Shown here: positions 13,721 through 62,935 of the stretch, in pieces
Layout: each line of letters begins with the position of its first letter
Position numbering within the stretch: the stretch's first letter is position 1
Source of the DNA: a virus
Virus record (IMG/VR): IMGVR_UViG_3300042898_002514
Strand: one strand, 5' to 3'
DNA length: 64,000 nucleotides
Program-made: the position numbers and the translations under genes
Notes under the pieces: model-generated
Seen by the model: only the letters and a program-made list of their open reading frames with translations
Databases searched by the model: none
What the model was told of the DNA's origin: nothing

Positions 13721-14026
13721 ATGGCCACAACCGTAGAACGACTTGGTGTAGTAGAAACCAAGGTAGCGAACCTAGACGAAAAATTAGATGAGATCAAGGT
13801 TGATGTTAAAGACATGCACGACTGTCTAGATAAAACTAGAGAAAGTGTCATGGCCAAACTAGAAGACATGTATGGTGCAAGCTGTGAACAACATAGTCAA
13901 TTGGCCAGTAAAATTACAGAATTAGAAAAATTTAGACAAAAATGGATCTATATGACTGCTGGTGGCGTAGCGGTATTAGGCTGGGTATCAGGGCATATGG
14001 ATCTAGTTGCCAAGATGTTTAGCTAA
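13721..14026 (+). CDS. Coiled-coil protein with C-terminal TM helix (holin-like candidate)
   Basis: Heptad pattern followed by WIYMTAGGVAVLGWV. Confidence 0.6.
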   Translation: MATTVERLGVVETKVANLDEKLDEIKVDVKDMHDCLDKTRESVMAKLEDMYGASCEQHSQLASKITELEKFRQKWIYMTAGGVAVLGWVSGHMDLVAKMFS

Positions 14027-14068
14027 TATCAATCACCCACTTAAATAAGGGCCATAGGTCCTTTTTTT

Positions 14069-14509
14069 ATGACAAACATACAGCGGCGGTTAGAGCACTT
14101 AGTAGCTAACGCACAGCATAAACTCATAGCTGACAACCACATTCTGCCACTGAAGGTTGCTGAAGGTATTCTTGTAGGTGATGTGTTAATCGTCAGTGAA
14201 GAAACTACAAAACATCTTTATAGGCACAACAGTCTTATCTACAGCAACATTAATCTCAATGCCACAGCAATCAGAATGGCCAATCTAGTGACAAAAAATA
14301 CCAATTCTGCAACCGTAGATAAAATTTACAGATTAGACCAAGAGTACGGCAAATGGTTCACAGATAGTCAGATTCTAAGAACACAGTATCAAAAAGCTGT
14401 CATAACTAAAAACTATGAAAAAGCGGATACTCTTTGGGCAAGGTACTGCGAAAGCAGAGATAAAACTCTAGCTGCCAAAGAAACTGTAACCGCTTTGACT
14501 TATTTCTGA
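14069..14509 (+). CDS. Hypothetical protein
   Basis: 146-aa ORF after TAAATA. Confidence 0.7.
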   Translation: MTNIQRRLEHLVANAQHKLIADNHILPLKVAEGILVGDVLIVSEETTKHLYRHNSLIYSNINLNATAIRMANLVTKNTNSATVDKIYRLDQEYGKWFTDSQILRTQYQKAVITKNYEKADTLWARYCESRDKTLAAKETVTALTYF

Positions 14510-25191: not shown

Positions 25192-25489
25192 ACAAGGCGA
25201 TCTTGCCAAAATTATCATGAGCATACGGCCTACCAACATAGGCAAAACTGTGTTGGTGGATGAGTATGTGGGACATTTTACGCAAGGTGAGGAATTTCAG
25301 TTTAAGGGAATTGCCTGCAAGGCTGCTATTACAGATCACTTTTGGTGGATAGCCACAGAATTTGGATTGAGTAATATGTACGGAGATACTCCAAAGGCCT
25401 ACATTCCAGATTCCTGGTTAGAACCTATTCGTCCTATGAAAGAAGTCCAAAAGCAACAAGAAGACATTGACTTAACTGTTAAAATGTAG
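25181..25489 (+). CDS. Hypothetical protein
   Basis: MKCEQGDLA...PDSWLEPIRP phage family pattern. Confidence 0.7.
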   Translation: MKCEQGDLAKIIMSIRPTNIGKTVLVDEYVGHFTQGEEFQFKGIACKAAITDHFWWIATEFGLSNMYGDTPKAYIPDSWLEPIRPMKEVQKQQEDIDLTVKM

Positions 25490-25497
25490 TTAAATAT

Positions 25498-25848
25498 AAG
25501 TTATTGCTGTATGAAGCGATGAGAAATAAGTTCAAGACGCGGGGGCAGTGCCCGCCAGGTCCACCAAAAGGATATTTATGAAGTACACCGCATTGTGCCC
25601 AAGTTGTTTTAATAGATTTAGTTGGGCACCAGGTAAAGGTTTAACAAGACATAAGTGTTTTTCTGATGGGCCTGACACAGGATCGATTGGGCAAAGAGTA
25701 ACAGAGTGGACAGCTCGGCAATGTAGAAGCCGTTAGGATTGGGGTCTCCCGGTCGAAGACACAAAAAAGTAACCGCAAACGACTCAAAGTTCGCATTAGC
25801 TGCCTAAACTCAGCTTAGGGTAAGACATACCTCGTAACAGAAACTCGG
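25498..25848 (+). ncRNA. ssrA: Two-piece (circularly permuted) tmRNA; outer ends approximate
   Basis: Acceptor piece ends GCGGG-GGCAGTG-CCCGC-CAGGTCC-ACCA (25566); coding piece starts GGGCCTG (25668, G3.U70); tag ANDSKFALAA* at 25775-25807. Confidence 0.92.
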
Positions 25849-25875
25849 AACCCGCTTCGGCGGGTTTTCTTTTTG
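25849..25875 (+). terminator. Intrinsic terminator, copy 1
   Basis: AACCCGC-TTCG-GCGGGTTTT. Confidence 0.9.
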
Positions 25876-36779: not shown

Positions 36780-38681
36780 ATGTCTAAGATCATCGGTATT
36801 GACCTCGGCACCACGAATTCTTGCGTGGCTATCGTCGAAAATGGAATTCCCAAAGTTATTGAGAATTCAGAAGGTGCTAGAACTACACCCAGCGTGGTTG
36901 CCTACACCAACAATGAAATTCTAGTTGGTGCCAGCGCAAAACGCCAGGCAGTAACAAATCCCAAAAACACCATCTATGCTGCCAAGCGTTTGATTGGTCG
37001 TAAATTCACTGAGGATGCAGTTCAAAAGGACATCGACCTGATGCCTTATGAAATTATCCAAAACGGTAATGGTGATGCTTGGGTCAAGGCAGGAGAACAA
37101 CGTCTTGCTCCTCCGCAGATTTCAGCAGAAGTTCTGCGTAAAATGAAAAAGACAGCGGAGGATTATTTAGGTCATGAAGTTACTCAAGCAGTTATCACAG
37201 TTCCTGCGTACTTTAACGACAGCCAAAGACAAGCTACCAAGGATGCTGGACAGATTGCCGGCTTGGAGGTACTGCGTATTATTAACGAGCCTACTGCGGC
37301 AGCTCTTAGTTATGGCGTTGATAAGTCTGATAAAGCTGACAGGAAGATTGCTGTTTATGATCTTGGTGGCGGTACTTTCGACGTATCGATCATTGAGATC
37401 GCGAACGTGGAAGGCGACAAACAAATCGAAGTACTAAGCACCAATGGTGACACCTTTCTAGGTGGTGAAGATTTTGACCAACGCATTATGGAATTCCTAG
37501 TTGATGAATTCAAGAAAGATTCCGGAATCGATCTCAAGAAAGATATGCTTGCCCTACAGCGTTTAAAAGATGCTGCTGAAAAAGCCAAGATTGAATTATC
37601 GAGTTCTGCACAAACAGAAGTCAATCTTCCATACGTTACAGCTGATGCTAGTGGTCCTAAACATCTAGTGGTAAAGATCACCCGTGCAAAACTAGAAAGT
37701 CTTGTAGCTGATCTAATCGAACGTAGTCTAGCACCTTGCCGCACAGCTATGAAAGATGCAGGCATTACCGCCACTGACATCGACGAAGTTATTCTTGTTG
37801 GTGGTCAAACACGTATGCCTAAAGTACAAGAAGCTGTTGAGCAACTGTTTGGCAAAGCACCCCGTAAAGATGTTAACCCCGACGAAGCTGTGGCCGCAGG
37901 CGCCGCCATTCAAGGTGCTGTTCTAGGTGGTGATCGCAATGACGTTTTGTTGTTGGATGTTACACCGTTGAGTCTAGGCATTGAGACCATGGGTGGCATT
38001 ATGACCAAGCTGGTGCAAAAGAATACAACTATCCCAACTAAAGCTAGTCAAACATTCTCTACAGCAGAAGACAACCAGCCTGCTGTGACCATCAAAGCGT
38101 TTCAAGGTGAACGCGAACTCGTACAACATAACAAGTTACTAGGCGAGTTTAACCTAGAAGGTATTGCACCAGGACGCAGAGGACAACCTCAGATTGAAGT
38201 GAGTTTTGACATTGACGCCAACGGTATCATGCACGTCAGCGCCAAAGACAAAAACACCGGCAAAGAAAACAAAATCACTATTAAATCAGATAGTGGATTG
38301 AGCAAAGAAGAAATCGAGCGTATGGTTCAAGATGCTGAAGTCAATGCAGAAGCAGATAAGAAAGCACGTACACTGATTGAAACACGTAATGGTGCTGAAG
38401 CACAGATGCACGAAGTACGTAAAGATCTAGAAGAGTTCCGTTCAGAACTTTCTGAAACAGAAATCACTGAGTTAGAAACAGTGATCAAAGCAGTAGAAGA
38501 AGCTACCAAAGGCACAGACCCTGAAAAGATCACTGAAGAACTCAACAAGGTTTATCCGGCAATGAAAACATTATTGGATAAAAAGCAGGCCAAGGAACAG
38601 GCAGCTCAGGCGCCTCAACCAGAAGCCAAAGCAGATGACAATGTGGTAGACGCTACGTTTACTGAAACTAAGTTTAGCTAA
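36780..38681 (+). CDS. dnaK: Hsp70 chaperone DnaK
   Basis: [25 protein letters not shown]; full length. Confidence 0.98.
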
Positions 38682-48144: not shown

Positions 48145-48237
48145 TATGGTCTCACCGCTTTGTCTATAGACCGGGTATATGTATACCGTGTTGACGACCT
48201 ATAAAACCAACACCTGTTGGCTAGTTACTCCCCAAGG
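48145..48237 (-). promoter_or_regulatory. yybP-ykoY (Mn2+) riboswitch
   Basis: Minus strand reads CCUUGGGGAGUA...GUCGUCAACAC...GGUGAGACCAU directly upstream of TerC. Confidence 0.88.
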
Positions 48238-48258
48238 TATTTAGCGATAAATATTACT

Positions 48259-50319
48259 ATGAAAAAGCTACTATTAAACCCTTGGACCGCATTGGTCACT
48301 CTAGCATTAGTATTAGGCATCCGTCTTGTAGATCCTAGTTTTATTGAAAGCGTAAGACTACGTTATTTTGACACATTAGTAACTAGTCAACCTGCCAACG
48401 ATGTTCCTGTTTATACAGTCAACATTGATGAAGCAACTCTAGACAAGCTAGGACAGTTTCCTTTCCCTAGAGACATGTATGCTGATATCATTAAAGAGAT
48501 TTATAGACGTGATGCCGGACTGGTTGTGTTTAACGTGCTAATGCCAGAGAAAGATCGTTTTGGCAAGGATGCCGTACTAGGTGAAACACTTAAGAAGTAT
48601 CCTGTGGTATTACCAGCACTAGGAAGTGAACGTCAAAAGAATATTACTCATAGAACACCTGCACAAGTAATAGGCATGGATCCTAAGGGACTAGTTGTTG
48701 AGTATCCAGGATTGATTAGTAATGTGGAGCCGCAAGAAAGTCTAGCAGCAGGTGTTGGTATTGTTAATACATTTCCAGAGATAGACGGTGTTGTTCGTCG
48801 TATGCCCATGGTCATACTAAGTCAAGAAAAACTACATCCTAGTCTAGCATTAGAGACACTGCGTGTGGCTGCCAAGGATCCCAAGTTCCAAGTCAAGATT
48901 GGTGACATGGGTGTAGAAGCTGTGCGTGTTCCTAAGTTTGGCAAAGTACCAACGGACAACGAAGGTCGTGTTTGGATTGATTGGTCAGCAACGCCTAGAG
49001 AATACAGTTACATGCAGTTGCCTGAATCATTTGACGGCGGTATTGTTATTGTTGGACTCAGTGCTGCTGGTCTGGTAAACCCTGTTAGTACAGCCAAAGG
49101 TGAAGTATGGCCACAATACCTACAAGGTGCAGTCATTGGCACTATGATGACGCAGAGCAACATACAGCGTCCAGGTTGGGCTGACCAAGCTGAGATCATT
49201 GCCTTGCTGGCCGCTGGATTACTAGTACTATTTTTATCAAGGTGGACCTATGCTTTTATTCCTGTTGTTGTCTTTCTCGGCGGCAGTCATTTCGCTATAT
49301 CTTATCTATATGAAAACTCCAGAATCCTATTGGACGCCACTTGGTTTGTTGTTGGCTGTAGTCTGGTATACATTCACGCTTATAGTGTCAAATTTTTAAG
49401 CGAGTACTTGCAAAAGTCACAGATTAAGAAACAGTTTGGCAGCTATGTAAATCCTGTAATTGTTGAACGCCTACAAAAAGATCCTAGCTTTATTAAACTA
49501 GGCGGAGAGAAGAAAGACCTTACCATCATCATGAGTGACATGCGCAACTTTACTGGCCTAGGTGAAACCTATGGTGATGACGTTGTGGCATTTACACAAA
49601 CAATGAATCGTTATATGACTGCCATTGCTGAACCTATACTGCGCAACAATGGATGCTTGATCAAGTTCATTGGTGATGCTAGTCTGCACGTTCATGGTGC
49701 TCCGATCCAAGAGCTTCAAGATCCTGATCATGCTCACGCTGCTGTCCGCACTGGACTAGAAATGATTCATGCTGTTGAACTGTTTAACATCGAACTTGAA
49801 CGAGAAGGAAAGCCACGTGTAGGTATGGGTTTGGGTATTAACACCGGTCCTACACTAATCGGTAACATTGGTAGTAAAGACCGATTTGGATATGATGTAC
49901 TAGGTGACTCAGTTAGTTTAACAGCACGACTAGAAAGTCAAACCAAGAACTATGGACAACTAATCATTATCAGTGAAAGCACAGAGAAGCGTGTTAACGA
50001 TCAGTACTTTACTATTCCTTTAGACTGTATTGCAGTCAAGGGCAAGACCATTGGTGTTAATATTTTTACTGTATTCTACATGCCTGATGAAACTGTAGCA
50101 GTTAAATGGAACACTGCCCGTGATATGCATAACGGTATGTTGACCTATTATAAGCAGCAAAAGTGGGATGACGCTATAGAATTATGCAAGACACTCACTG
50201 GTGAATTTGACGGCAATATGGATCACTACTATGAACTGTGGATTGAGCGTATAGCTGATATGCGCTCTAGAGATTTACCAAAAGATTGGGACGGTACCTA
50301 CAAAGCTACCTCGAAGTAA
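48259..50319 (+). CDS. CHASE2-domain class III adenylate/guanylate cyclase
   Basis: VNIDEATLDKLGQFPFPR, DGVVRR, three TMs, SDMRNFT, KFIGDA, GDSVSLTARLES; start revised to MKKLLL. Confidence 0.95.
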   Translation: MKKLLLNPWTALVTLALVLGIRLVDPSFIESVRLRYFDTLVTSQPANDVPVYTVNIDEATLDKLGQFPFPRDMYADIIKEIYRRDAGLVVFNVLMPEKDRFGKDAVLGETLKKYPVVLPALGSERQKNITHRTPAQVIGMDPKGLVVEYPGLISNVEPQESLAAGVGIVNTFPEIDGVVRRMPMVILSQEKLHPSLALETLRVAAKDPKFQVKIGDMGVEAVRVPKFGKVPTDNEGRVWIDWSATPREYSYMQLPESFDGGIVIVGLSAAGLVNPVSTAKGEVWPQYLQGAVIGTMMTQSNIQRPGWADQAEIIALLAAGLLVLFLSRWTYAFIPVVVFLGGSHFAISYLYENSRILLDATWFVVGCSLVYIHAYSVKFLSEYLQKSQIKKQFGSYVNPVIVERLQKDPSFIKLGGEKKDLTIIMSDMRNFTGLGETYGDDVVAFTQTMNRYMTAIAEPILRNNGCLIKFIGDASLHVHGAPIQELQDPDHAHAAVRTGLEMIHAVELFNIELEREGKPRVGMGLGINTGPTLIGNIGSKDRFGYDVLGDSVSLTARLESQTKNYGQLIIISESTEKRVNDQYFTIPLDCIAVKGKTIGVNIFTVFYMPDETVAVKWNTARDMHNGMLTYYKQQKWDDAIELCKTLTGEFDGNMDHYYELWIERIADMRSRDLPKDWDGTYKATSK

Positions 50320-56375: not shown

Positions 56376-56969
56376 GTGATAAGTAATAGTAATCCCAAGG
56401 AGCAGATCTTGAAGAAAATTGATGAGTTCAATGCTAGTGATAGAATTGGCGTAAAATTATTAGACAATTCCATCCACTATCTCGGTGGTGAAATCACTGC
56501 TGAAAATGTGGAGGAATGCATCAAATGGATTGTTTATGAAAATCTCGAAGTCAAGGAAAAAATACTCACCCTTTATGTAAATTCCACAGGGGGAGATCTA
56601 TATCAAGCATTTGCTCTTATAGACATCATGCAGAGCAGTAAACACAGTGTGAGAACTATTGGTGTTGGCAGTATAATGAGTGCTGCCTTTTTGATTTTTG
56701 CTGCGGGCGCCAAAGGAGAACGATACCTAGCTGCCAACACAGGAATTATGTGTCATCAGTTTTCTGGGAGTGCCGCTGATATTAAGTTTCACGACCTCAA
56801 GGCTGAAATGAAGGAAAACGAATTCTTGAATCAAAAGATGATCAATATACTGCAACAGGCCACGGATCTAACACCATCAAAGATAAAATCAAAATTGTTA
56901 CCGGCTTCAGACGTTTATATGACTGTTCAAGAAGCACTAGATTTTGGTATCGCAGATCAATTACTATAG
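56376..56969 (+). CDS. Second, divergent ClpP-like protease (start uncertain)
   Basis: YVNSTGGD, SIMSAA, IMCHQ, DVYMTVQEALDFGIAD. Confidence 0.85.
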   Translation: MISNSNPKEQILKKIDEFNASDRIGVKLLDNSIHYLGGEITAENVEECIKWIVYENLEVKEKILTLYVNSTGGDLYQAFALIDIMQSSKHSVRTIGVGSIMSAAFLIFAAGAKGERYLAANTGIMCHQFSGSAADIKFHDLKAEMKENEFLNQKMINILQQATDLTPSKIKSKLLPASDVYMTVQEALDFGIADQLL

Positions 56970-57355: not shown

Positions 57356-57384
57356 TTGACAAGAGAACTAAATAACTGTATAAT
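57356..57384 (+). promoter_or_regulatory. Sigma70 promoter P2 of the tRNA operon
   Basis: Perfect TTGACA-N17-TATAAT, followed by a 5' hairpin at 57391-57413. Confidence 0.9.
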
Positions 57385-57801: not shown

Positions 57802-57907
57802 TACTGCAACGTGGTAGGGGAAACGAGGTCCTCGCAACACACGATAAACAGTTGTAAACGGGCGGCCTAGGCGATGAAGTCTCTTTTGTGAGATAAAAAA
57901 CCCTAGC

Positions 57908-58020
57908 GTATTAAAGCATTCTTTACGAACAGTCAGACTAAGTAGTTTAGAATGTTTTAATACACACATTCTTCATTCAGCTCTTGACGCTGTCTAAAAG
58001 CATAGCGGAGAGTGTGTTTA
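57908..58020 (+). repeat. Two tandem CAUU/ARUG-core hairpins (elements D and E)
   Basis: 57908-57922 pairs with 57949-57963; 57961-57972 pairs with 58009-58020. Confidence 0.65.
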
Positions 58021-58028
58021 CAATTTAT

Positions 58029-58117
58029 GGAAGTGTGCGCTGAATTGGTTGAAGGCAACGGACTGTAAATCCGCCACATAAGAAACATTGTAGGTTCGAA
58101 TCCTACCACTTCCACCA
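58029..58117 (+). tRNA. tRNA-Tyr(GTA)
   Basis: Cloverleaf, long variable arm, CCA. Confidence 0.93.
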
Positions 58118-58123
58118 AGTTTT

Positions 58124-58199
58124 GCCTCGTTCATATAACGGTCTATTATATCCGCCTGTCTAGCGGAATACAGGGGTTCGACTCCCCTACGAGGCGCCA
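58124..58199 (+). tRNA. tRNA-Asp(GTC)
   Basis: Cloverleaf; loop CT-GTC-TA (U37). Confidence 0.9.
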
Positions 58200-58205
58200 G
58201 TTTAT

Positions 58206-58281
58206 TCCCCGATAGCACAGAGGTAGTTGCGCTTCGCTGTTAACGAAGATGTCGTACGTTCGATCCGTACTCGGGGAGCCA
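58206..58281 (+). tRNA. tRNA-Asn(GTT)
   Basis: Cloverleaf, GCCA end. Confidence 0.93.
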
Positions 58282-58287
58282 GACAAT

Positions 58288-58361
58288 GTATCTCTAATGT
58301 AATGGCAGCATCACAGTCTCCAAAACTGTTCGTCGGGGTTCGAGTCCCTGGAGGTACGCCA
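58288..58361 (+). tRNA. tRNA-Trp(CCA)
   Basis: Cloverleaf, GCCA end. Confidence 0.92.
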
Positions 58362-58369
58362 AACAATTT

Positions 58370-58444
58370 GCACGATTCGTCTATCGGTTAGGACGCTGCC
58401 CTTTCAAGGCGGAAAGACGAGTTCGATTCTCGTATCGTGTACCA
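58370..58444 (+). tRNA. tRNA-Glu(TTC)
   Basis: Cloverleaf. Confidence 0.93.
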
Positions 58445-58451
58445 ATATACC

Positions 58452-58525
58452 GCGGGATTAGTTTAATGGTCAAACGAAACCTTGCCAAGGTTTAGTCAGG
58501 AGTTCGATTCTCCTATCCCGCTCCA
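58452..58525 (+). tRNA. tRNA-Gly(GCC)
   Basis: Cloverleaf, U73. Confidence 0.93.
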
Positions 58526-58528
58526 TAT

Positions 58529-58620
58529 GCCAGCGAGACTTGACAGTCAGAGAGTCCTTATAAGACTTTTAGCGCCAGATTAGCGTTCTTGAGAGGGTTT
58601 GATTCCCTCCGCTGGTACCA
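58529..58620 (+). tRNA. Atypical tRNA with TAT anticodon (nominal Ile)
   Basis: GCCAGCG/CGCTGGT acceptor, 4-nt D loop, CT-TAT-AA loop, long variable arm, TTTGATT T loop. Confidence 0.7.
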
Positions 58621-58626
58621 CACCAT

Positions 58627-58704
58627 ATAGGGATGGCAGAGAGGCCCAATGCAACAGTCTGCAAAACTGTAAACCCGTGGGTTCGAATCCCACTCCCTAT
58701 TCCA
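58627..58704 (+). tRNA. tRNA-Cys(GCA)
   Basis: Cloverleaf, U73. Confidence 0.92.
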
Positions 58705-58708
58705 ATAT

Positions 58709-58785
58709 ACCCCTGTACGCTAATTGGTAGTGCGGGTAGACTTAAAATCTGCTGGATGGCGGTTCGAATCTGCCCAGGGGTACCA
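58709..58785 (+). tRNA. tRNA with TAA anticodon (nominal Leu), short variable loop
   Basis: Cloverleaf, 5-nt variable region. Confidence 0.85.
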
Positions 58786-58853
58786 ATCAACCAGTCTTGG
58801 ACACGCAGACTTTAAAGCGATGTGGGAGTAGGTGGAAGCCCTGCACCTAATAT

Positions 58854-58943
58854 GGAAGTATGGCTGAGCATGGCTTAAGGCAGCAGTCTTGAAAACTGAA
58901 GGCTCGAAAGGGTCCGTGGGTTCGAATCCTACTACTTCCGCCA
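58854..58943 (+). tRNA. tRNA-Ser(TGA)
   Basis: Cloverleaf, long variable arm, G73. Confidence 0.93.
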
Positions 58944-58947
58944 ATTT

Positions 58948-59021
58948 TCCCGGATAATTAAATGGTATAATAATCGGCTGATAACCGGTCTTCGCAAGTT
59001 CGATTCTTGCTCTGGGAACCA
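58948..59021 (+). tRNA. tRNA-Ile(GAT)
   Basis: Cloverleaf. Confidence 0.9.
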
Positions 59022-59124
59022 ATTTTTAAAATGGAGAATGACATGAAACGAGGTAAACTCTAGTGTCATCCTAGACCCCCGTATGGTCCTGGATGGCACG
59101 TAAAAGAAAATATTTACGATCCAT

Positions 59125-59199
59125 CCACGCTAAACTTTAGTGGCGAAGTACCCGGCTCTTAACCGGACTAACTGAGTTCGATTCTCAGAGCGTGGACCA
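59125..59199 (+). tRNA. tRNA-Lys(CTT)
   Basis: Cloverleaf, CT-CTT-AA loop. Confidence 0.85.
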
Positions 59200-59202
59200 T
59201 AT

Positions 59203-59278
59203 GGGAGTATAGTGAAATGGTTATCACAGCAGACTTTTAATCTGCCAGTTCCGGGTTCGAGTCCCGGTGCTCCTACCA
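59203..59278 (+). tRNA. tRNA-Lys(TTT)
   Basis: Cloverleaf. Confidence 0.93.
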
Positions 59279-59359
59279 TAGACAAACACATTAGAAGCCT
59301 TCGTGACTGTGGGCGAGTAGGTCTCTAAGTCGTTTCCGACTAGTGTGTTTTTCTATGGT
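59275..59359 (+). repeat. ACCA-anchored long hairpin, element A
   Basis: ACCATAGACAAACACATTAG / CTAGTGTGTTTTTCTATGGT, 45-nt interior. Confidence 0.8.
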
Positions 59360-59464
59360 TAGTATCAGAAGATGTGATCGAAACAGGTGTACTAGTCATA
59401 CACAATGTCGTGACCGGAGGATGAGAAGTCGCAAGAGTAGGCCTGACCGCTAGAGGGTAGCGAC

Positions 59465-59552
59465 ACCATATAAAAACACATTAGGCCTGATCATAGATCA
59501 TCGCGGGTATAGTGCCTTCCGAGCCGCGGACTTGAGTGTGTTTTTATATGGT
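59465..59552 (+). repeat. ACCA-anchored long hairpin, element B
   Basis: ACCATATAAAAACACATT / AGTGTGTTTTTATATGGT, 52-nt interior. Confidence 0.8.
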
Positions 59553-59624
59553 AACGTAGCATAATGGTCGTGCACCTCCTTCATACGGAGCAAGGTGCTG
59601 GTTCGAATCCAGCCGTTACCACCA
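59550..59624 (+). tRNA. tRNA with CAT anticodon (Met or Ile2)
   Basis: Cloverleaf, TT-CAT-AC loop. Confidence 0.88.
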
Positions 59625-59627
59625 AGT

Positions 59628-59824
59628 TTTGTAAGTGTCAGCAAGAGAAAGACTCGCTAGGAAGATTCTTCGAAGGTCAACCTAGTGCAAAAGTAGGGCG
59701 GGTTCGAGTCCCGTAAAAGCAGCGGAGCACCTATGTCAAGTATTCCAAGTGATGTACCACCTCCCGTCCGGACCAGTGCAATCGGGTGAATGGTAGAGAT
59801 TAAAGTGGCTCTACTACTTACAAA
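59628..59824 (+). ncRNA. Unassigned ~200-nt structured RNA
   Basis: Closing stem TTTGTAAGT/ACTTACAAA, UUCG hairpin, internal T-arm mimic. Confidence 0.6.
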
Positions 59825-59833
59825 TTCAATTAT

Positions 59834-59909
59834 CTCTCTAAAGTGTTATCTGGTTGCATCCGCGGTTTGGGGCCGTGTGGTCTAGGTTCGAATCCTAGTA
59901 GGGAGACCA
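59834..59909 (+). tRNA. tRNA-Pro(TGG)
   Basis: Cloverleaf, G37. Confidence 0.9.
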
Positions 59910-59917
59910 GTTTCTGT

Positions 59918-59991
59918 TGGGGGTTAGTTAAATGGTATAACCGCGGATTTTGATTCCGCTATTAAAGGTTCGATTCCTTTACCCTCTGCCA
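59918..59991 (+). tRNA. tRNA-Gln(TTG)
   Basis: Cloverleaf, U1.U72 mismatch. Confidence 0.9.
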
Positions 59992-59998
59992 AATTTAT

Positions 59999-60075
59999 CG
60001 GACCGTAATTCAATTGGATAGAAAGCAAGTCTTCGAAACTTGAGGTTGGGAGTTCGAATCTCTCCGGTCCGGCCA
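59999..60075 (+). tRNA. tRNA-Arg(TCG)
   Basis: Cloverleaf. Confidence 0.9.
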
Positions 60076-60091
60076 TATAAAGGAAAATGCT

Positions 60092-60259
60092 ATGAAAACA
60101 ATTACATTTAAAAATAGATTCAACAATGAGCGAGTGGTCTGTAATGATCCCAAGGCTGTACAAGTAATTGACGGCATTGAGTACCTGTTGGTCAGCAAGA
60201 CCATTCAAGATAGAAAATTTCTAATGCGTAAAGATGCATTGGAGAAGATTAAAACATAG
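60092..60259 (+). CDS. Small hypothetical protein (55 aa)
   Basis: AAGGA SD; MKTITFKNRFNNERVVCNDPKAVQVIDGIEYLLV... Confidence 0.65.
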   Translation: MKTITFKNRFNNERVVCNDPKAVQVIDGIEYLLVSKTIQDRKFLMRKDALEKIKT

Positions 60260-60265
60260 ATCAAT

Positions 60266-60339
60266 GTTGTTCCTAGTGTAGTGGCTGCACAACTGTCTGT
60301 GAAACAGTTAGAGAGGGTTCGATTCCCCGGTTCAACCCA
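60266..60339 (+). tRNA. tRNA-His(GTG), irregular
   Basis: G-1/C73, CT-GTG-AA loop; two U.U mismatches in acceptor, irregular T stem. Confidence 0.7.
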
Positions 60340-60355
60340 ACAAAGTAGAAATATC

Positions 60356-60760
60356 ATGGAACAAGTAAAAATATTAAACACATTAAAGGGATCTGTTCGT
60401 AAGTTCGAAGAATTACTAGGACGATCATTGTACAAGGCAGAAGCAGACGACTCAGTATTGACACTGTATCTGTCCAAGACAAACTATGTAAGATTCCAAC
60501 ATCACCAAGATTGTTGCGAAAGTGTTTACATAGAAGACATATGTGGTGACCTCGATGACCTTGTGGGAGCACCACTAGTTGAAGCTGAAGAAGTTTCTGA
60601 CTATGAAGGTGAAGCTACAGGAGACGAGTCTTACACATGGACATTTTACAAGTTTGCTACACGCAAGGGATTTGTAACTGTTCGGTGGTATGGTTCCAGC
60701 AATGGATACTATTCCGAAAGTGTCAGTGTTGATGTAGTTGATACTACTATAAAGGATTAA
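60356..60760 (+). CDS. Conserved phage protein (HQDCCE motif)
   Basis: HHQDCCESVYIEDICGDL, WTFYKFAT, WYGSSNGYYSE; start revised to follow the His tRNA. Confidence 0.8.
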   Translation: MEQVKILNTLKGSVRKFEELLGRSLYKAEADDSVLTLYLSKTNYVRFQHHQDCCESVYIEDICGDLDDLVGAPLVEAEEVSDYEGEATGDESYTWTFYKFATRKGFVTVRWYGSSNGYYSESVSVDVVDTTIKD

Positions 60761-60761
60761 T

Positions 60762-60837
60762 GCAACTTTAGCTGATGTGGTCATAGCGGCGGTTTGAAGA
60801 ACCGTTGAACCAGGTTCGATTCCTGGAGGTTGCACCA
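60762..60837 (+). tRNA. tRNA-Phe(GAA)
   Basis: Cloverleaf, G37. Confidence 0.92.
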
Positions 60838-60875
60838 AGACAAATGCGAGAATGGTGGAATTTAATAAATATTAT

Positions 60876-61439
60876 ATGAACATATTATTCCTTCCAATTG
60901 ATATTGAAATTCCAAAGATTGATACATCAAAAATACAGTCTACAATTAACGTCATCAACAACCTAACCTACATAAAAACTGCAGAGTATCAACAGTATTG
61001 GGATACTTCTAGAATTACTGAAACAGTTGATGATACTTTAAAATCTGTACTAGATCAGTTGCCTATAAGCAAAGTAACAAATGTATATTATAAAGAGCAA
61101 AGACAAGCTGTGTCACCTCATTACGATGTATATCCAAATATGAAATTTGAAGAAGGAGAATACACTAATATTTTAGATAACGAACCTGCAGGGTATCGTC
61201 TAGTCCTAGAAGGGTCCACTGATGTACTTTATGTTAAAAGTGGAGGCACGTTTAAGTTAGCAGAATTGCCATCTGTGCCTTGTTGTTATCTTTTAAATAC
61301 CACAGCAGGGCTACACATGCTCAAGGATGATCCGGGCAGAAAGATTATCTATATTAGAGGATTTATTGATACAGCAAGGCATCAGACGCTGATAGAAAAA
61401 AGTCTCAAACGTTATAAAAATTTAGCAATTATTGCATAA
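60876..61439 (+). CDS. Cupin/2OG-Fe(II) oxygenase-like protein
   Basis: PHYD...LLNTTAGLH...RKIIY; TAAATA upstream. Confidence 0.6.
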   Translation: MNILFLPIDIEIPKIDTSKIQSTINVINNLTYIKTAEYQQYWDTSRITETVDDTLKSVLDQLPISKVTNVYYKEQRQAVSPHYDVYPNMKFEEGEYTNILDNEPAGYRLVLEGSTDVLYVKSGGTFKLAELPSVPCCYLLNTTAGLHMLKDDPGRKIIYIRGFIDTARHQTLIEKSLKRYKNLAIIA

Positions 61440-61443
61440 CATT

Positions 61444-61518
61444 GCCGCCTTTGTATAATAGAGAATACAGCTCTCTTCCAAAGTGCGAATAGGAGTTCGA
61501 TTCCTAGAGGTTGCACCA
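61444..61518 (+). pseudogene. Chimeric pseudo-tRNA (TCC anticodon, 3' end matching tRNA-Phe)
   Basis: Poor acceptor pairing; 61495-61519 matches 60814-60838 at 24/25 nt. Confidence 0.7.
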
Positions 61519-61563
61519 ACTAAGTTGGACTCTTAGAACTCTACATAATTAATAAATACCAAC

Positions 61564-62127
61564 ATGCAAAACTTTTATAAACACTTTCCAGAAATAGATA
61601 ATGTATATTGGACTAACTATTTTTTGAAAGAATTCATACCAAAATATAAAATTTTTGAACAATTGTCTAGTCCTTTATATATGATGTATTTTAAAAAAGA
61701 TTTTTATAAAGATTTAGAAATATTAAAACTTAGTTCGTTGCTAGTTAGTAAACTAAAATTTCCACCGATTGAATATTTTTCAATATTTAAACACACGTAT
61801 TCCCAGGCCATTCATGCTGATGGTAAATCAACATTGAGATATGCAAGCTTCAACTTACCTCTCGTGGGGTTTGAAGGGACAAGGATGTGTTTTTATAATA
61901 CAAAATCAAATGTTATTCCTAAAGTAGCAGATGCTTATTATTTTAAAGAAGATGATGTATGTCTTGCTACAGAACTAGAAGGCAAGAATGAATGGACATT
62001 AGTAAACAGTTCAATCCCACATAATATTGTGAATGTAGATTTTAATAATCCTAGAATAACAGTATGCATTAGATTTAATGGTAATCCAAAACTTGAGGAT
62101 CTAATAACAAATGAAATTCAATCCTAA
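61564..62127 (+). CDS. Cupin/2OG-Fe(II) oxygenase-like protein
   Basis: IHADG..ASFNLPL..LVNSSIPHNIVN..RITVCIRF; AT-rich; TAAATA upstream. Confidence 0.65.
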   Translation: MQNFYKHFPEIDNVYWTNYFLKEFIPKYKIFEQLSSPLYMMYFKKDFYKDLEILKLSSLLVSKLKFPPIEYFSIFKHTYSQAIHADGKSTLRYASFNLPLVGFEGTRMCFYNTKSNVIPKVADAYYFKEDDVCLATELEGKNEWTLVNSSIPHNIVNVDFNNPRITVCIRFNGNPKLEDLITNEIQS

Positions 62128-62159
62128 GGACGGCACCAAAAAATATTTTAAAATAACTG

Positions 62160-62188
62160 TTGACAAGATAACGTAATGACTATATAAT
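62160..62188 (+). promoter_or_regulatory. Sigma70 promoter for the second tRNA block
   Basis: TTGACA-N17-TATAAT. Confidence 0.88.
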
Positions 62189-62241
62189 AGTTACATACTA
62201 AGCAATTAGTAATGTTCATTAAAAATTTAAAGTAAGATTTT

Positions 62242-62325
62242 GCGCAAGTGGTGGAATGGTATACACGATGGTCTTAGAAGCCATTGCCGAAAGGATTGAG
62301 AGTTCGAGTCTCTCCTTGCGCACCA
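62242..62325 (+). tRNA. tRNA-Leu(TAG)
   Basis: Cloverleaf, long variable arm. Confidence 0.93.
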
Positions 62326-62408
62326 TATTGAAACATATTAAAGATAGGGTTGTAACGGTTCATTGAACTTTAGTACATACCGTGGTAGTTAGTGTGTTTC
62401 AATATGGT
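62322..62408 (+). repeat. ACCA-anchored long hairpin, element C
   Basis: ACCATATTGAAACATATTAA / TTAGTGTGTTTCAATATGGT, 47-nt interior. Confidence 0.8.
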
Positions 62409-62742: not shown

Positions 62743-62744
62743 GA

Positions 62745-62935
62745 ACGTTCCGAGTGTCTTCGGATAGTGTGACCCGCACGATGAGAAGTAGTGTGACAAC
62801 TACGGGTGGTAGTCTTTAAACCCAAAGGCCGCTAGCAATGCGAGAACGGTCCCTGTCGGGAAGCGGGTGGAAGGTACGAGTGAGAGGTATGATAGCGTCA
62901 TATCTTTCTGTACTATAATTACCGCCGGGGGACGT
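62745..62935 (+). ncRNA. Unassigned ~190-nt structured RNA
   Basis: Closing ACGTTCC/GGGACGT, several internal stems, motif shared with 59406-59465. Confidence 0.6.

Follow-up and report, generated by a model that had tools for sequence, protein, structure and literature searches.

The gene of a two-piece transfer-messenger RNA (tmRNA) contains an intervening segment that must be removed to give the two pieces, and the tRNA regions of T4-type phages are known targets of homing-endonuclease-driven gene conversion. Bacterial RNase III acts on a regular helix of about two turns, roughly 20–22 bp, with a minimum of about 11 bp from the cut (PMC3867540), and the variable module of the Y RNA YrlA imitates tRNA (PMC4201824). 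Here we analysed a family of long hairpins in the tRNA array of the virus with IMG/VR record IMGVR_UViG_3300042898_002514, of which a stretch of 64,000 nt (the window) was studied. An original prediction, made by a model from the letters alone, had picked out five such hairpins, A to E, and had read them either as processing stems or as cassettes that release variable small RNAs. From the sequence comparisons described below we consider it probable (about 0.6) that A, B and C are phage-specific RNA modules that are co-transcribed with the tRNAs, being excised spacers that free stem-clamped small RNAs.

The window belongs to a T4-like freshwater phage and holds 24 tRNA genes on the + strand between 57.9 and 63.7 kb. 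Hairpin A (59275–59359, + strand; stem ACCATAGACAAACACATT / AGTGTGTTTTTCTATGGT; interior of 49 nt) takes its first four bases from the paired 3' ACCA end of tRNA-Lys(UUU) (59203–59278, +). Hairpin B (59465–59552, +; stem ACCATATAAAAACACATT / AGTGTGTTTTTATATGGT; interior of 52 nt) ends in the GGT that forms the first three bases of tRNA-Met(CAU) (59550–59624, +). Hairpin C (62322–62408, +; stem ACCATATTGAAACATATT / AGTGTGTTTCAATATGGT; interior of 51 nt) begins on the ACCA of tRNA-Leu(UAG) (62242–62325, +), which is paired within it, and ends 11 nt before tRNA-Val. The coordinates thus bear out the proposed arrangement, in which A and C take up the ACCA of the preceding tRNA and B covers the 5' end of the next. 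All three are inverted repeats with arms of 16–20 nt and a complementarity of 90–100%; the fold z-scores were −4.9 for A, −5.2 for B and −7.5 for C, and none of 200 shuffles folded equally well, in agreement with their description as hairpins. A covariance model (R1, built on an alignment of 135 family members) scored A, B and C at 57.9, 60.3 and 62.5 bits, that is, 58–62 bits on the + strand vs 43–45 bits on the − strand. By this model and a position-weight scan they were the only clear members in the 64-kb window. None of the three gave an Rfam match at E≤1, and a reading as terminators was rejected as no U-tract follows the stems.

Hairpins D and E had been said to share the core of the family, which is only partly right. 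Hairpin D (57905–57966, +) has a 15-bp stem, GTATTAAAGCATTCT / AGAATGTTTTAATAC, with a z-score of −5.1; it scored 18.6 bits with R1 (E about 0.02) and less than 8 bits in the position-weight scan. Judged by eye, it is a diverged copy of the family, with an inner stem altered by compensating substitutions. Hairpin E (57964–58033, +; z-score −3.2) is a degenerate member that keeps the inner core ACACATT / AGTGTGTTT; its 3' arm, AGTGTGTTTACA[ATT]TATGG, carries a 3-nt insertion and runs into tRNA-Tyr (start 58029). It lacks the outer 5' arm because D abuts it, and no covariance-model match was obtained.

Further members were collected from IMG/VR with fixed-arm patterns: a scan with the 3' arm AGTGTGTTTNNNTATGGT gave at least 120 loci, and a scan with the 5' arm added at least 54. 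Orientation was set by the local tRNA strand, and the E-values of the model are rough. Among the matches listed, a complementary 5' arm was present 5–141 nt upstream of the 3' arm in 149 of 161. The family so obtained comprises at least 239 elements (222 unique) on more than 170 uncultured phage contigs; tRNAs are carried by 112 of the first 121 sources (the 120 loci and the window). The stem consensus is ACCATATWRAAACACATT / AGTGTGTTTYWATATGGT, a nearly fixed helix of 18–19 bp in which ACCAUAUWRAAACACAUU is paired with AGUGUGUUUYWAUAUGGU; in the DNA, the conserved start reads ACCATAT[A/T][A/G]AAACACATT and the conserved end AGTGTGTTT[C/T][T/A]ATATGGT. The inner 9-bp core of the stem is AAACACAUU/AGUGUGUUU. 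Pair 9 is usually an A.C or other mismatch and pair 17 mostly a U.G wobble. There are 19 conserved pairs, with pairs 20–21 also paired in about half of the members, and conservation drops to background at nucleotides 19 and −19, which marks a sharp arm boundary. Such an abrupt drop also fits an alternative in which the hairpins are selfish DNA cassettes similar to miniature inverted-repeat transposable elements, with the arms as conserved terminal inverted repeats and the interiors as passengers. They would spread into CCA-TAT-G tRNA junctions and be tolerated since the repeats fold in the transcript and get cut out, as for the Correia elements of Neisseria.

Selection on pairing through compensatory changes had been proposed from the few copies in the window, and the larger family confirmed it. 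In the alignment of 135 members, 94.8% of the cells were paired and both sides had changed at 11 of the 19 pairs, a result reached by none of 500 shuffles; controls in which the arms were slid against each other paired in 30–56%. In elements collected with the 3' arm fixed, pairs 10–16 of the 5' arm had changed in 51 of 924 cells, always from A to G or from C to U, with G.U pairing kept. With the 5' arm fixed, the 3' arm was mismatched in only 11 of 637 cells. The R1 scores were 13–19 bits higher on the tRNA strand, both in the window and in other genomes. The transition pattern and the strand asymmetry point to selection on a hairpin in the tRNA transcript and not on a site in duplex DNA.

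The family is apparently restricted to phages and previously undescribed. No Rfam 15 family covers it, and the text of the IMG/VR structured-RNA catalogue contains no description of it, though the supplementary lists of that catalogue could include the motif. When 185,579 species genomes were scanned with a pattern of both arms, only three small contigs of metagenome-assembled genomes came up (assigned to Planktophila, Polynucleobacter and a gammaproteobacterium), and these are probably phage sequences binned in error. No strong R1 match was found in 150 Burkholderiales genomes. A BLAST search of B and the tmRNA gene against 50,697 phage records returned nothing useful, and its low-complexity filter may hide the A-rich arms. 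When R1 was run on the phages Mosig, Melnitz, DSL-LC02 and S-CREM1, the sole match was the tmRNA spacer of Mosig (see below). Seven complete or near-complete carrier genomes from IMG/VR are 100–364 kb in size, with a GC content of 38–45% and 25–41 tRNAs. Common to all seven are the T4-type genes for gp5, SbcC-like gp46, UvsW, RNase H, gp44, gp32, gp15, the gp21 protease and gp25, in addition to PhoH and Hsp20. The closest cultured phages by UvsW (about 50% identity) are Pelagibacter phage Mosig, Methylophilales phage Melnitz and cyanomyophages of the Kyanoviridae; by these genes the carriers belong to the T4-like phages and stand close to the pelagi- and cyanomyophages.

In complete genomes the hairpins occur in 1–4 copies, all within the tRNA array, and all 16 R1 matches in the seven complete genomes fell in the 20-kb chunk that holds the array. 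Almost half of the elements (119 of 239) begin on the ACCA of a tRNA, most often tRNA-Lys(UUU) and also those for Glu, Gln, Ile and Leu; 97 of 239 abut the next tRNA, most often that for Met or His. Tandem hairpins were also seen, for instance in contigs L065, L007 and L085. The location on CCA ends and tRNA 5' ends would suit pure processing or gating stems that separate the tRNAs and time their maturation, with interiors that are meaningless loops. This simplest reading is countered by the 87 of 239 elements that adjoin no tRNA recognised by ARAGORN, by a stem sequence constrained far beyond the needs of pairing, and by the length and conservation of the interiors (see below), and we judge it very unlikely.

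tRNA junctions without a hairpin consist of short A/T spacers, often ending in TAT before the next tRNA, so that part of the outer arm (ACCA-UAU...AUAU-G) comes from the usual preferences of trailers and leaders, which do not account for the inner core AAACACAUU/AGUGUGUUU. Empty junctions often read CCA-(A)TAT-G, and a filled site then resembles an insertion with a palindromic ATAT duplication, as expected for mobile cassettes. The flanks have the form ACC-ATAT...ATAT-GGT and ATAT is itself palindromic, and a target-site duplication is therefore indistinguishable from stem pairing. Chimeric arms (as in L009) and the HNH and endonuclease-I-like genes located in tRNA arrays would also suit mobile cassettes, and Correia elements are bound and cut by RNase III (PMC2649163). 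The low copy number, the confinement of all copies to the tRNA array or the tmRNA gene and the failure to identify a transposase speak against them, as does the constant orientation of the interiors relative to the tRNAs. Seventeen apparent cases of inverted cargo, considered as DNA flipping, were due to tRNA-less loci, threshold artefacts and composite arms.

A link to RNA excision is provided by tmRNA. The window contains a permuted tmRNA gene at 25463–25852 (Rfam tmRNA_permuted 102 bits, alpha_tmRNA 72.6 bits; not reported by ARAGORN). Its intervening segment (25563–25669, +) forms a long hairpin (z-score −4.0) that starts at the acceptor piece's ACCA and reaches the GGG at the coding piece's 5' end, and its 3' arm, AAGTGTTTTTCTGATGG, resembles that of the family. 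This spacer is an analogue of the hairpin family; A, B and C themselves are positioned between tRNA genes and not in the tmRNA gene. Of the similarity noted earlier between the spacer stem and the hairpins, the existence of the stem, the ACCA-to-GGG design and the 3' arm stood up, but the R1 score was 14.3 bits only. Permuted tmRNA genes were reported by ARAGORN in six of seven related complete genomes (all except G020). In three phages the hairpin of the intervening segment contains the family core itself: L017 (ARAGORN permuted tmRNA at 13937–14332, matching the betaproteobacterial model), L081 and the cultured Pelagibacter phage Mosig. The Mosig spacer reads CCACCA-TAAACACATT...AATGTGTTTA-TGGGG (MT647606, about 111664–111713; L254 1501–1550), with the core AAACACATT/AATGTGTTT directly after CCACCA. 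In L081, the tmRNA flanks are the same as those of the window gene and the interior is 100% identical to one found behind tRNA-Lys in genome G006; to judge from this identity, core and cargo have moved between a tRNA spacer and the tmRNA gene. The hairpin thus sits exactly where an excised spacer sits, which supports the idea of processing stems put forward in the original prediction. The analogy with tmRNA spacers equally suits hairpins that only process, and mobile cassettes would equally account for the same core and interior between unrelated flanks and at both kinds of site, tRNA and tmRNA spacers. In eight of the eleven tmRNA spacers of these phages, including that of the window, the inner stems are different and covary freely (for example GAATTCTG/CAGAATTC in genome G019). 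Assuming that these spacers are normally processed, excision alone probably does not explain the conserved stem.

In the reading that we favour, the hairpins would act as excised spacers. In the helix, the upstream RNA's ACCA 3' end is paired with the leader of the RNA that follows and in some cases with its first bases as well. The AU-only middle of the stem is where a double-strand-specific cut would part the RNAs on either side; the putative cutter is most likely the host RNase III. The short outer duplex would then fall apart, allowing exonucleases to trim to the CCA and RNase P to cut the next 5' end, and the interior would be freed as a small RNA with the inner 9-bp core as its clamp. 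Core and interior would move as a cassette among tRNA-array and tmRNA spacers, probably by recombination in the conserved arms. A minority of the cargo RNAs would imitate the T-arm of tRNA. The fixed sequence of the stem may be a handle for a protein, or homology for cassette recombination between co-infecting phages. Three perfect sigma-70-type promoters lie ahead of array tRNAs and on the same strand, at 57356, 62160 and 63651; the first (57356–57384, +; TTGACA, 17 nt, TATAAT, 12/12) is upstream of the first tRNA array and the second (62160–62188, +; 12/12) upstream of tRNA-Leu, hairpin C and tRNA-Val. A search of 19 contigs for a phage-encoded RNase III gave no result, and the host enzyme would therefore act. 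The helix of about 19–21 bp matches the usual size of a cellular RNase III substrate (PMC3867540). In the commonest variants the central 9 bp (pairs 4–12) are A-U only and would thereby avoid the G-C antideterminants at positions 2 and 4 of the proximal box (PMC3867540); some stem variants have G-C at pairs 7–9.

Several points weigh against this reading. The collection with fixed arms under-samples the real diversity and inflates conservation on the fixed arm. RNase III needs no fixed sequence, and given this indifference and the eight of eleven tmRNA spacers without the core, processing does not explain 18 nearly invariant base pairs. Searches of the carrier contigs and genomes revealed no partner protein.

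The 222 unique elements collected fell into 157 interior types, of 30–100 nt (mostly 36–72 nt) and structured. The original prediction had asked whether interiors are exchanged between phages, and they are: tRNA-Lys(UUU) is followed by a family hairpin in seven of the eight genomes examined, with seven different interiors, which at an orthologous socket indicates exchange. They do not drift freely either, as relatives of the window interiors with 86–98% identity and compensatory changes occur in other phages. The interior of A is 98% identical to that of L059:1142-1226, which has another stem variant and other flanks. That of B is present in 17 IMG/VR contigs, in at least six flank contexts and with a compensatory change from GGTC/GACC to GATC/GATC, and that of C is 86% identical to L022:1424-1510, again with compensatory changes. 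Of 58 pairs of elements from different contigs whose interiors were at least 85% identical, 48 showed no likeness in either 80-nt flank. Such conservation with compensatory changes is not expected of passengers, and we therefore regard selfish mobile cassettes as an unlikely account of the family. Long, structured interiors that are 85–100% conserved across unrelated contexts with differing flanks also disagree with meaningless loops. Conservation in unrelated flanks and exchange thus uphold the proposed cassette format, but the roles suggested for its contents drew a blank. CRISPR repeats and ToxI were looked for in the hairpins via Rfam, with no match of any kind, and as antisense guides the interiors showed no excess complementarity: their complementarity to their own loci of about 10 kb was no higher than that of shuffled interiors. 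A decoy of the tRNA-Lys anticodon loop was rejected as well, as no UUU-anticodon-like loops occur in the interiors; an anticodon-loop signature in general was weakly enriched (13 vs 4.7). T-loop motifs were found in 18 of 132 interiors vs 3.8 expected, and canonical 5-bp T-arms in 7 vs 0.3 expected; in one cargo family the T-stem covaries beside an acceptor-like extension of the clamp. Overall, the patterns of conservation and exchange suggest that the cargo RNAs are probably functional.

The near-invariance of the stem can also be read in another way, in which the constant stem, with its A.C mismatch and U.G wobble, is a protein-binding handle and the interiors are effector modules, as in the design of Y RNAs. 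The modules could be decoys or inhibitors of host defences that target tRNA or sense RNA, and processing would merely release the particle. The sequence itself, beyond its pairing, is nearly invariant across paralogous lineages and phages of 100–400 kb, which would suit a handle, as would the freely varying inner stems of the tmRNA spacers in the same phages. The hyperdiverse interiors at the fixed tRNA-Lys(UUU) site resemble an arms-race locus, T-arm mimics are enriched, some interiors have tRNA-like layouts, and genes of RNA-repair type lie beside the arrays. On the other hand, a TROVE/Ro gene (PF05731) was detected in none of 20 contigs, eight of them at least 90% complete, with the control genomes positive, and the Ro-binding motif GNCGAAN0-1G (PMC4201824) does not occur in the stem consensus. 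No YrlA match was obtained on A, B and C (E≤1) or on 15 hairpins in five loci (E≤0.1), so that membership of the Y RNAs was rejected; one weak YrlA match in the five loci (28 bits vs a gathering score of 69) lies outside the hairpins. No mimic of the tRNA-Lys anticodon loop was found, and the candidate neighbour proteins are not universal and none is encoded in the window. Thus, a protein with DUF2828 and DUF7788 domains, which has no sequence relative among solved structures, lies beside arrays in 12 loci, but is missing from the window and from all except 3 of 19 long contigs, and was rejected as a partner. A PF04308 RNaseH-like protein was rejected too; it is missing from the window and was seen in 11 of 19 long contigs and in 5 of 8 complete genomes. 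The 7–31 families common to the seven annotated complete genomes consist of T4-type genes for replication and the virion together with PhoH and Hsp20, and no universal RNA-binding protein was obvious among them; about ten families were left unscanned. We therefore regard a protein-binding handle as possible but doubtful. A more speculative extension, which we find harder still to credit, is a small-RNA display system of the phage, in which one protein would bind the shared 9–18 bp handle of more than 150 kinds of rapidly exchanged structured RNAs, cut out from fixed sockets in the tmRNA gene and the tRNA operons, above all that behind tRNA-Lys(UUU), and these would act as decoys or inhibitors against host defences directed at tRNA or sensing RNA.

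Several other features of the arrays were recorded. In related phages, recurrent neighbours of the array are genes for a metallophosphatase, a PF04308 RNaseH-like protein, a dual-specificity phosphatase, an AAA_33 kinase and the DUF2828+DUF7788 protein (for example at L030:6100-6666, L018:7278-7754, L005:7338-7817, L051:4266-4727 and L119:3775-5202), a set that resembles RNA repair or RNA quality control. Another phage tRNA array contains a near-threshold match to Dicty_Class_I_RNA (L048, 6904–6957; 40.4 bits vs 41.5). In the window, the 105-nt stretch between A and B (59360–59464) ends in ...GCGAC-ACCA and leads into B; what is visible of its 3' part, the ~35 nt directly ahead of B, is kept in the related contig L260. 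It has GATGAGAAGT in common with the stretch 62743–62900 that follows tRNA-Ser(GCU), and neither stretch folds better than shuffles. The 92-nt 'tRNA-Ile(UAU)' called by ARAGORN at 58529–58620 has an acceptor stem, a T-arm and an ACCA end around an odd middle; it gave no Rfam tRNA match at E≤1 and may be a non-decoding tRNA-shaped RNA. A sub-threshold tRNA-like match at 61444–61515 (23.7 bits vs 29) ends in CACCA, and the 200-nt gap between tRNA-Met and tRNA-Pro (59625–59833) holds the T-arm-like GGGTTCGAGTCCC; both may be additional non-canonical RNAs of the array. The phage of the window also encodes a full-length Hsp70/DnaK, an adenylate/guanylate cyclase with a CHASE2 domain and a ClpP-like protease (36780–38681, 48217–50319 and 56376–56966), accessory genes that are unusual as a set in a T4-like phage.

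The tRNA array of a phage is usually taken as a list of tRNAs. The arrays described here contain RNA genes of a second class as well. This class is modular, joins one shared clamp to more than 150 kinds of cargo, is conserved in a large group of T4-like phages that are abundant in freshwater, and extends to marine pelagiphages. If the cargo is functional, the arrays would contain a large unexplored pool of phage small RNAs, and the turnover at its sites would resemble that of an arms-race locus; a display system, if real, would be the RNA-level counterpart of anti-defence gene islands. If the cargo is a passenger, the hairpins would represent a new, harmless lifestyle for a mobile element inside tRNA and tmRNA genes. 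Under either reading the clamp forms a natural scaffold with which to release defined small RNAs from a tRNA transcript. The covariance model R1 provides a simple signature for the annotation of these elements, and Mosig, as a cultured marine pelagiphage that carries the core, offers a possible experimental system.

The known systems each share part of this design. RNase III stalks, such as those at the 16S/23S ribosomal RNA flanks and at the early-RNA sites of phage T7 (R1.1 and others; PMC3867540), likewise form a helix of about 20 bp with an A-U rich centre from sequences that flank a released RNA in a polycistronic transcript, and the host enzyme is the presumed (here putative) cutter. They have no fixed sequence across species, whereas 18 bp are nearly invariant in the more than 170 phage contigs of our family; moreover, the family stem begins exactly on the tRNA ACCA and encloses a small exchangeable cassette, not one fixed product. 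The intervening segment of permuted tmRNA is an excised hairpin that connects the acceptor piece, at its CCA end, with the coding piece, at its 5' end, and shares the core in L017, L081 and Mosig; most such segments have other, covarying inner stems, and the family lies mainly between tRNA genes. Species 1 and 2 of T4 (rnaC and rnaD) are small non-tRNA RNAs that are co-transcribed with a T4-type tRNA cluster, and rnaC has a T-arm-like hairpin, as do some of the interiors. They share no stem with the family and fold differently, and R1 found nothing in T4 69000–74000; T4 has two fixed genes, while the family has a constant clamp with swappable cargo. Y RNAs (YrlA/YrlB; RF02553; PMC4201824) combine a long closing stem, formed from the two ends, with a variable module, and occur several to a genome; in contrast to them, the family has no Ro-binding motif, no TROVE gene nearby or in its contigs and no model match. 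TIGR (tandem interspaced guide RNA) arrays (PMC12045711) were rejected as there is no tandem 36-nt periodicity. Correia elements (PMC2649163), finally, are short, have terminal inverted repeats that fold in transcripts and form the RNase III-cleaved hairpin mentioned above. They are present in high copy number, dispersed, in either orientation and with a conserved core, whereas the hairpins described here occur in 1–4 copies, in tRNA arrays or the tmRNA gene only, in one orientation and with interiors that are hypervariable yet conserved.

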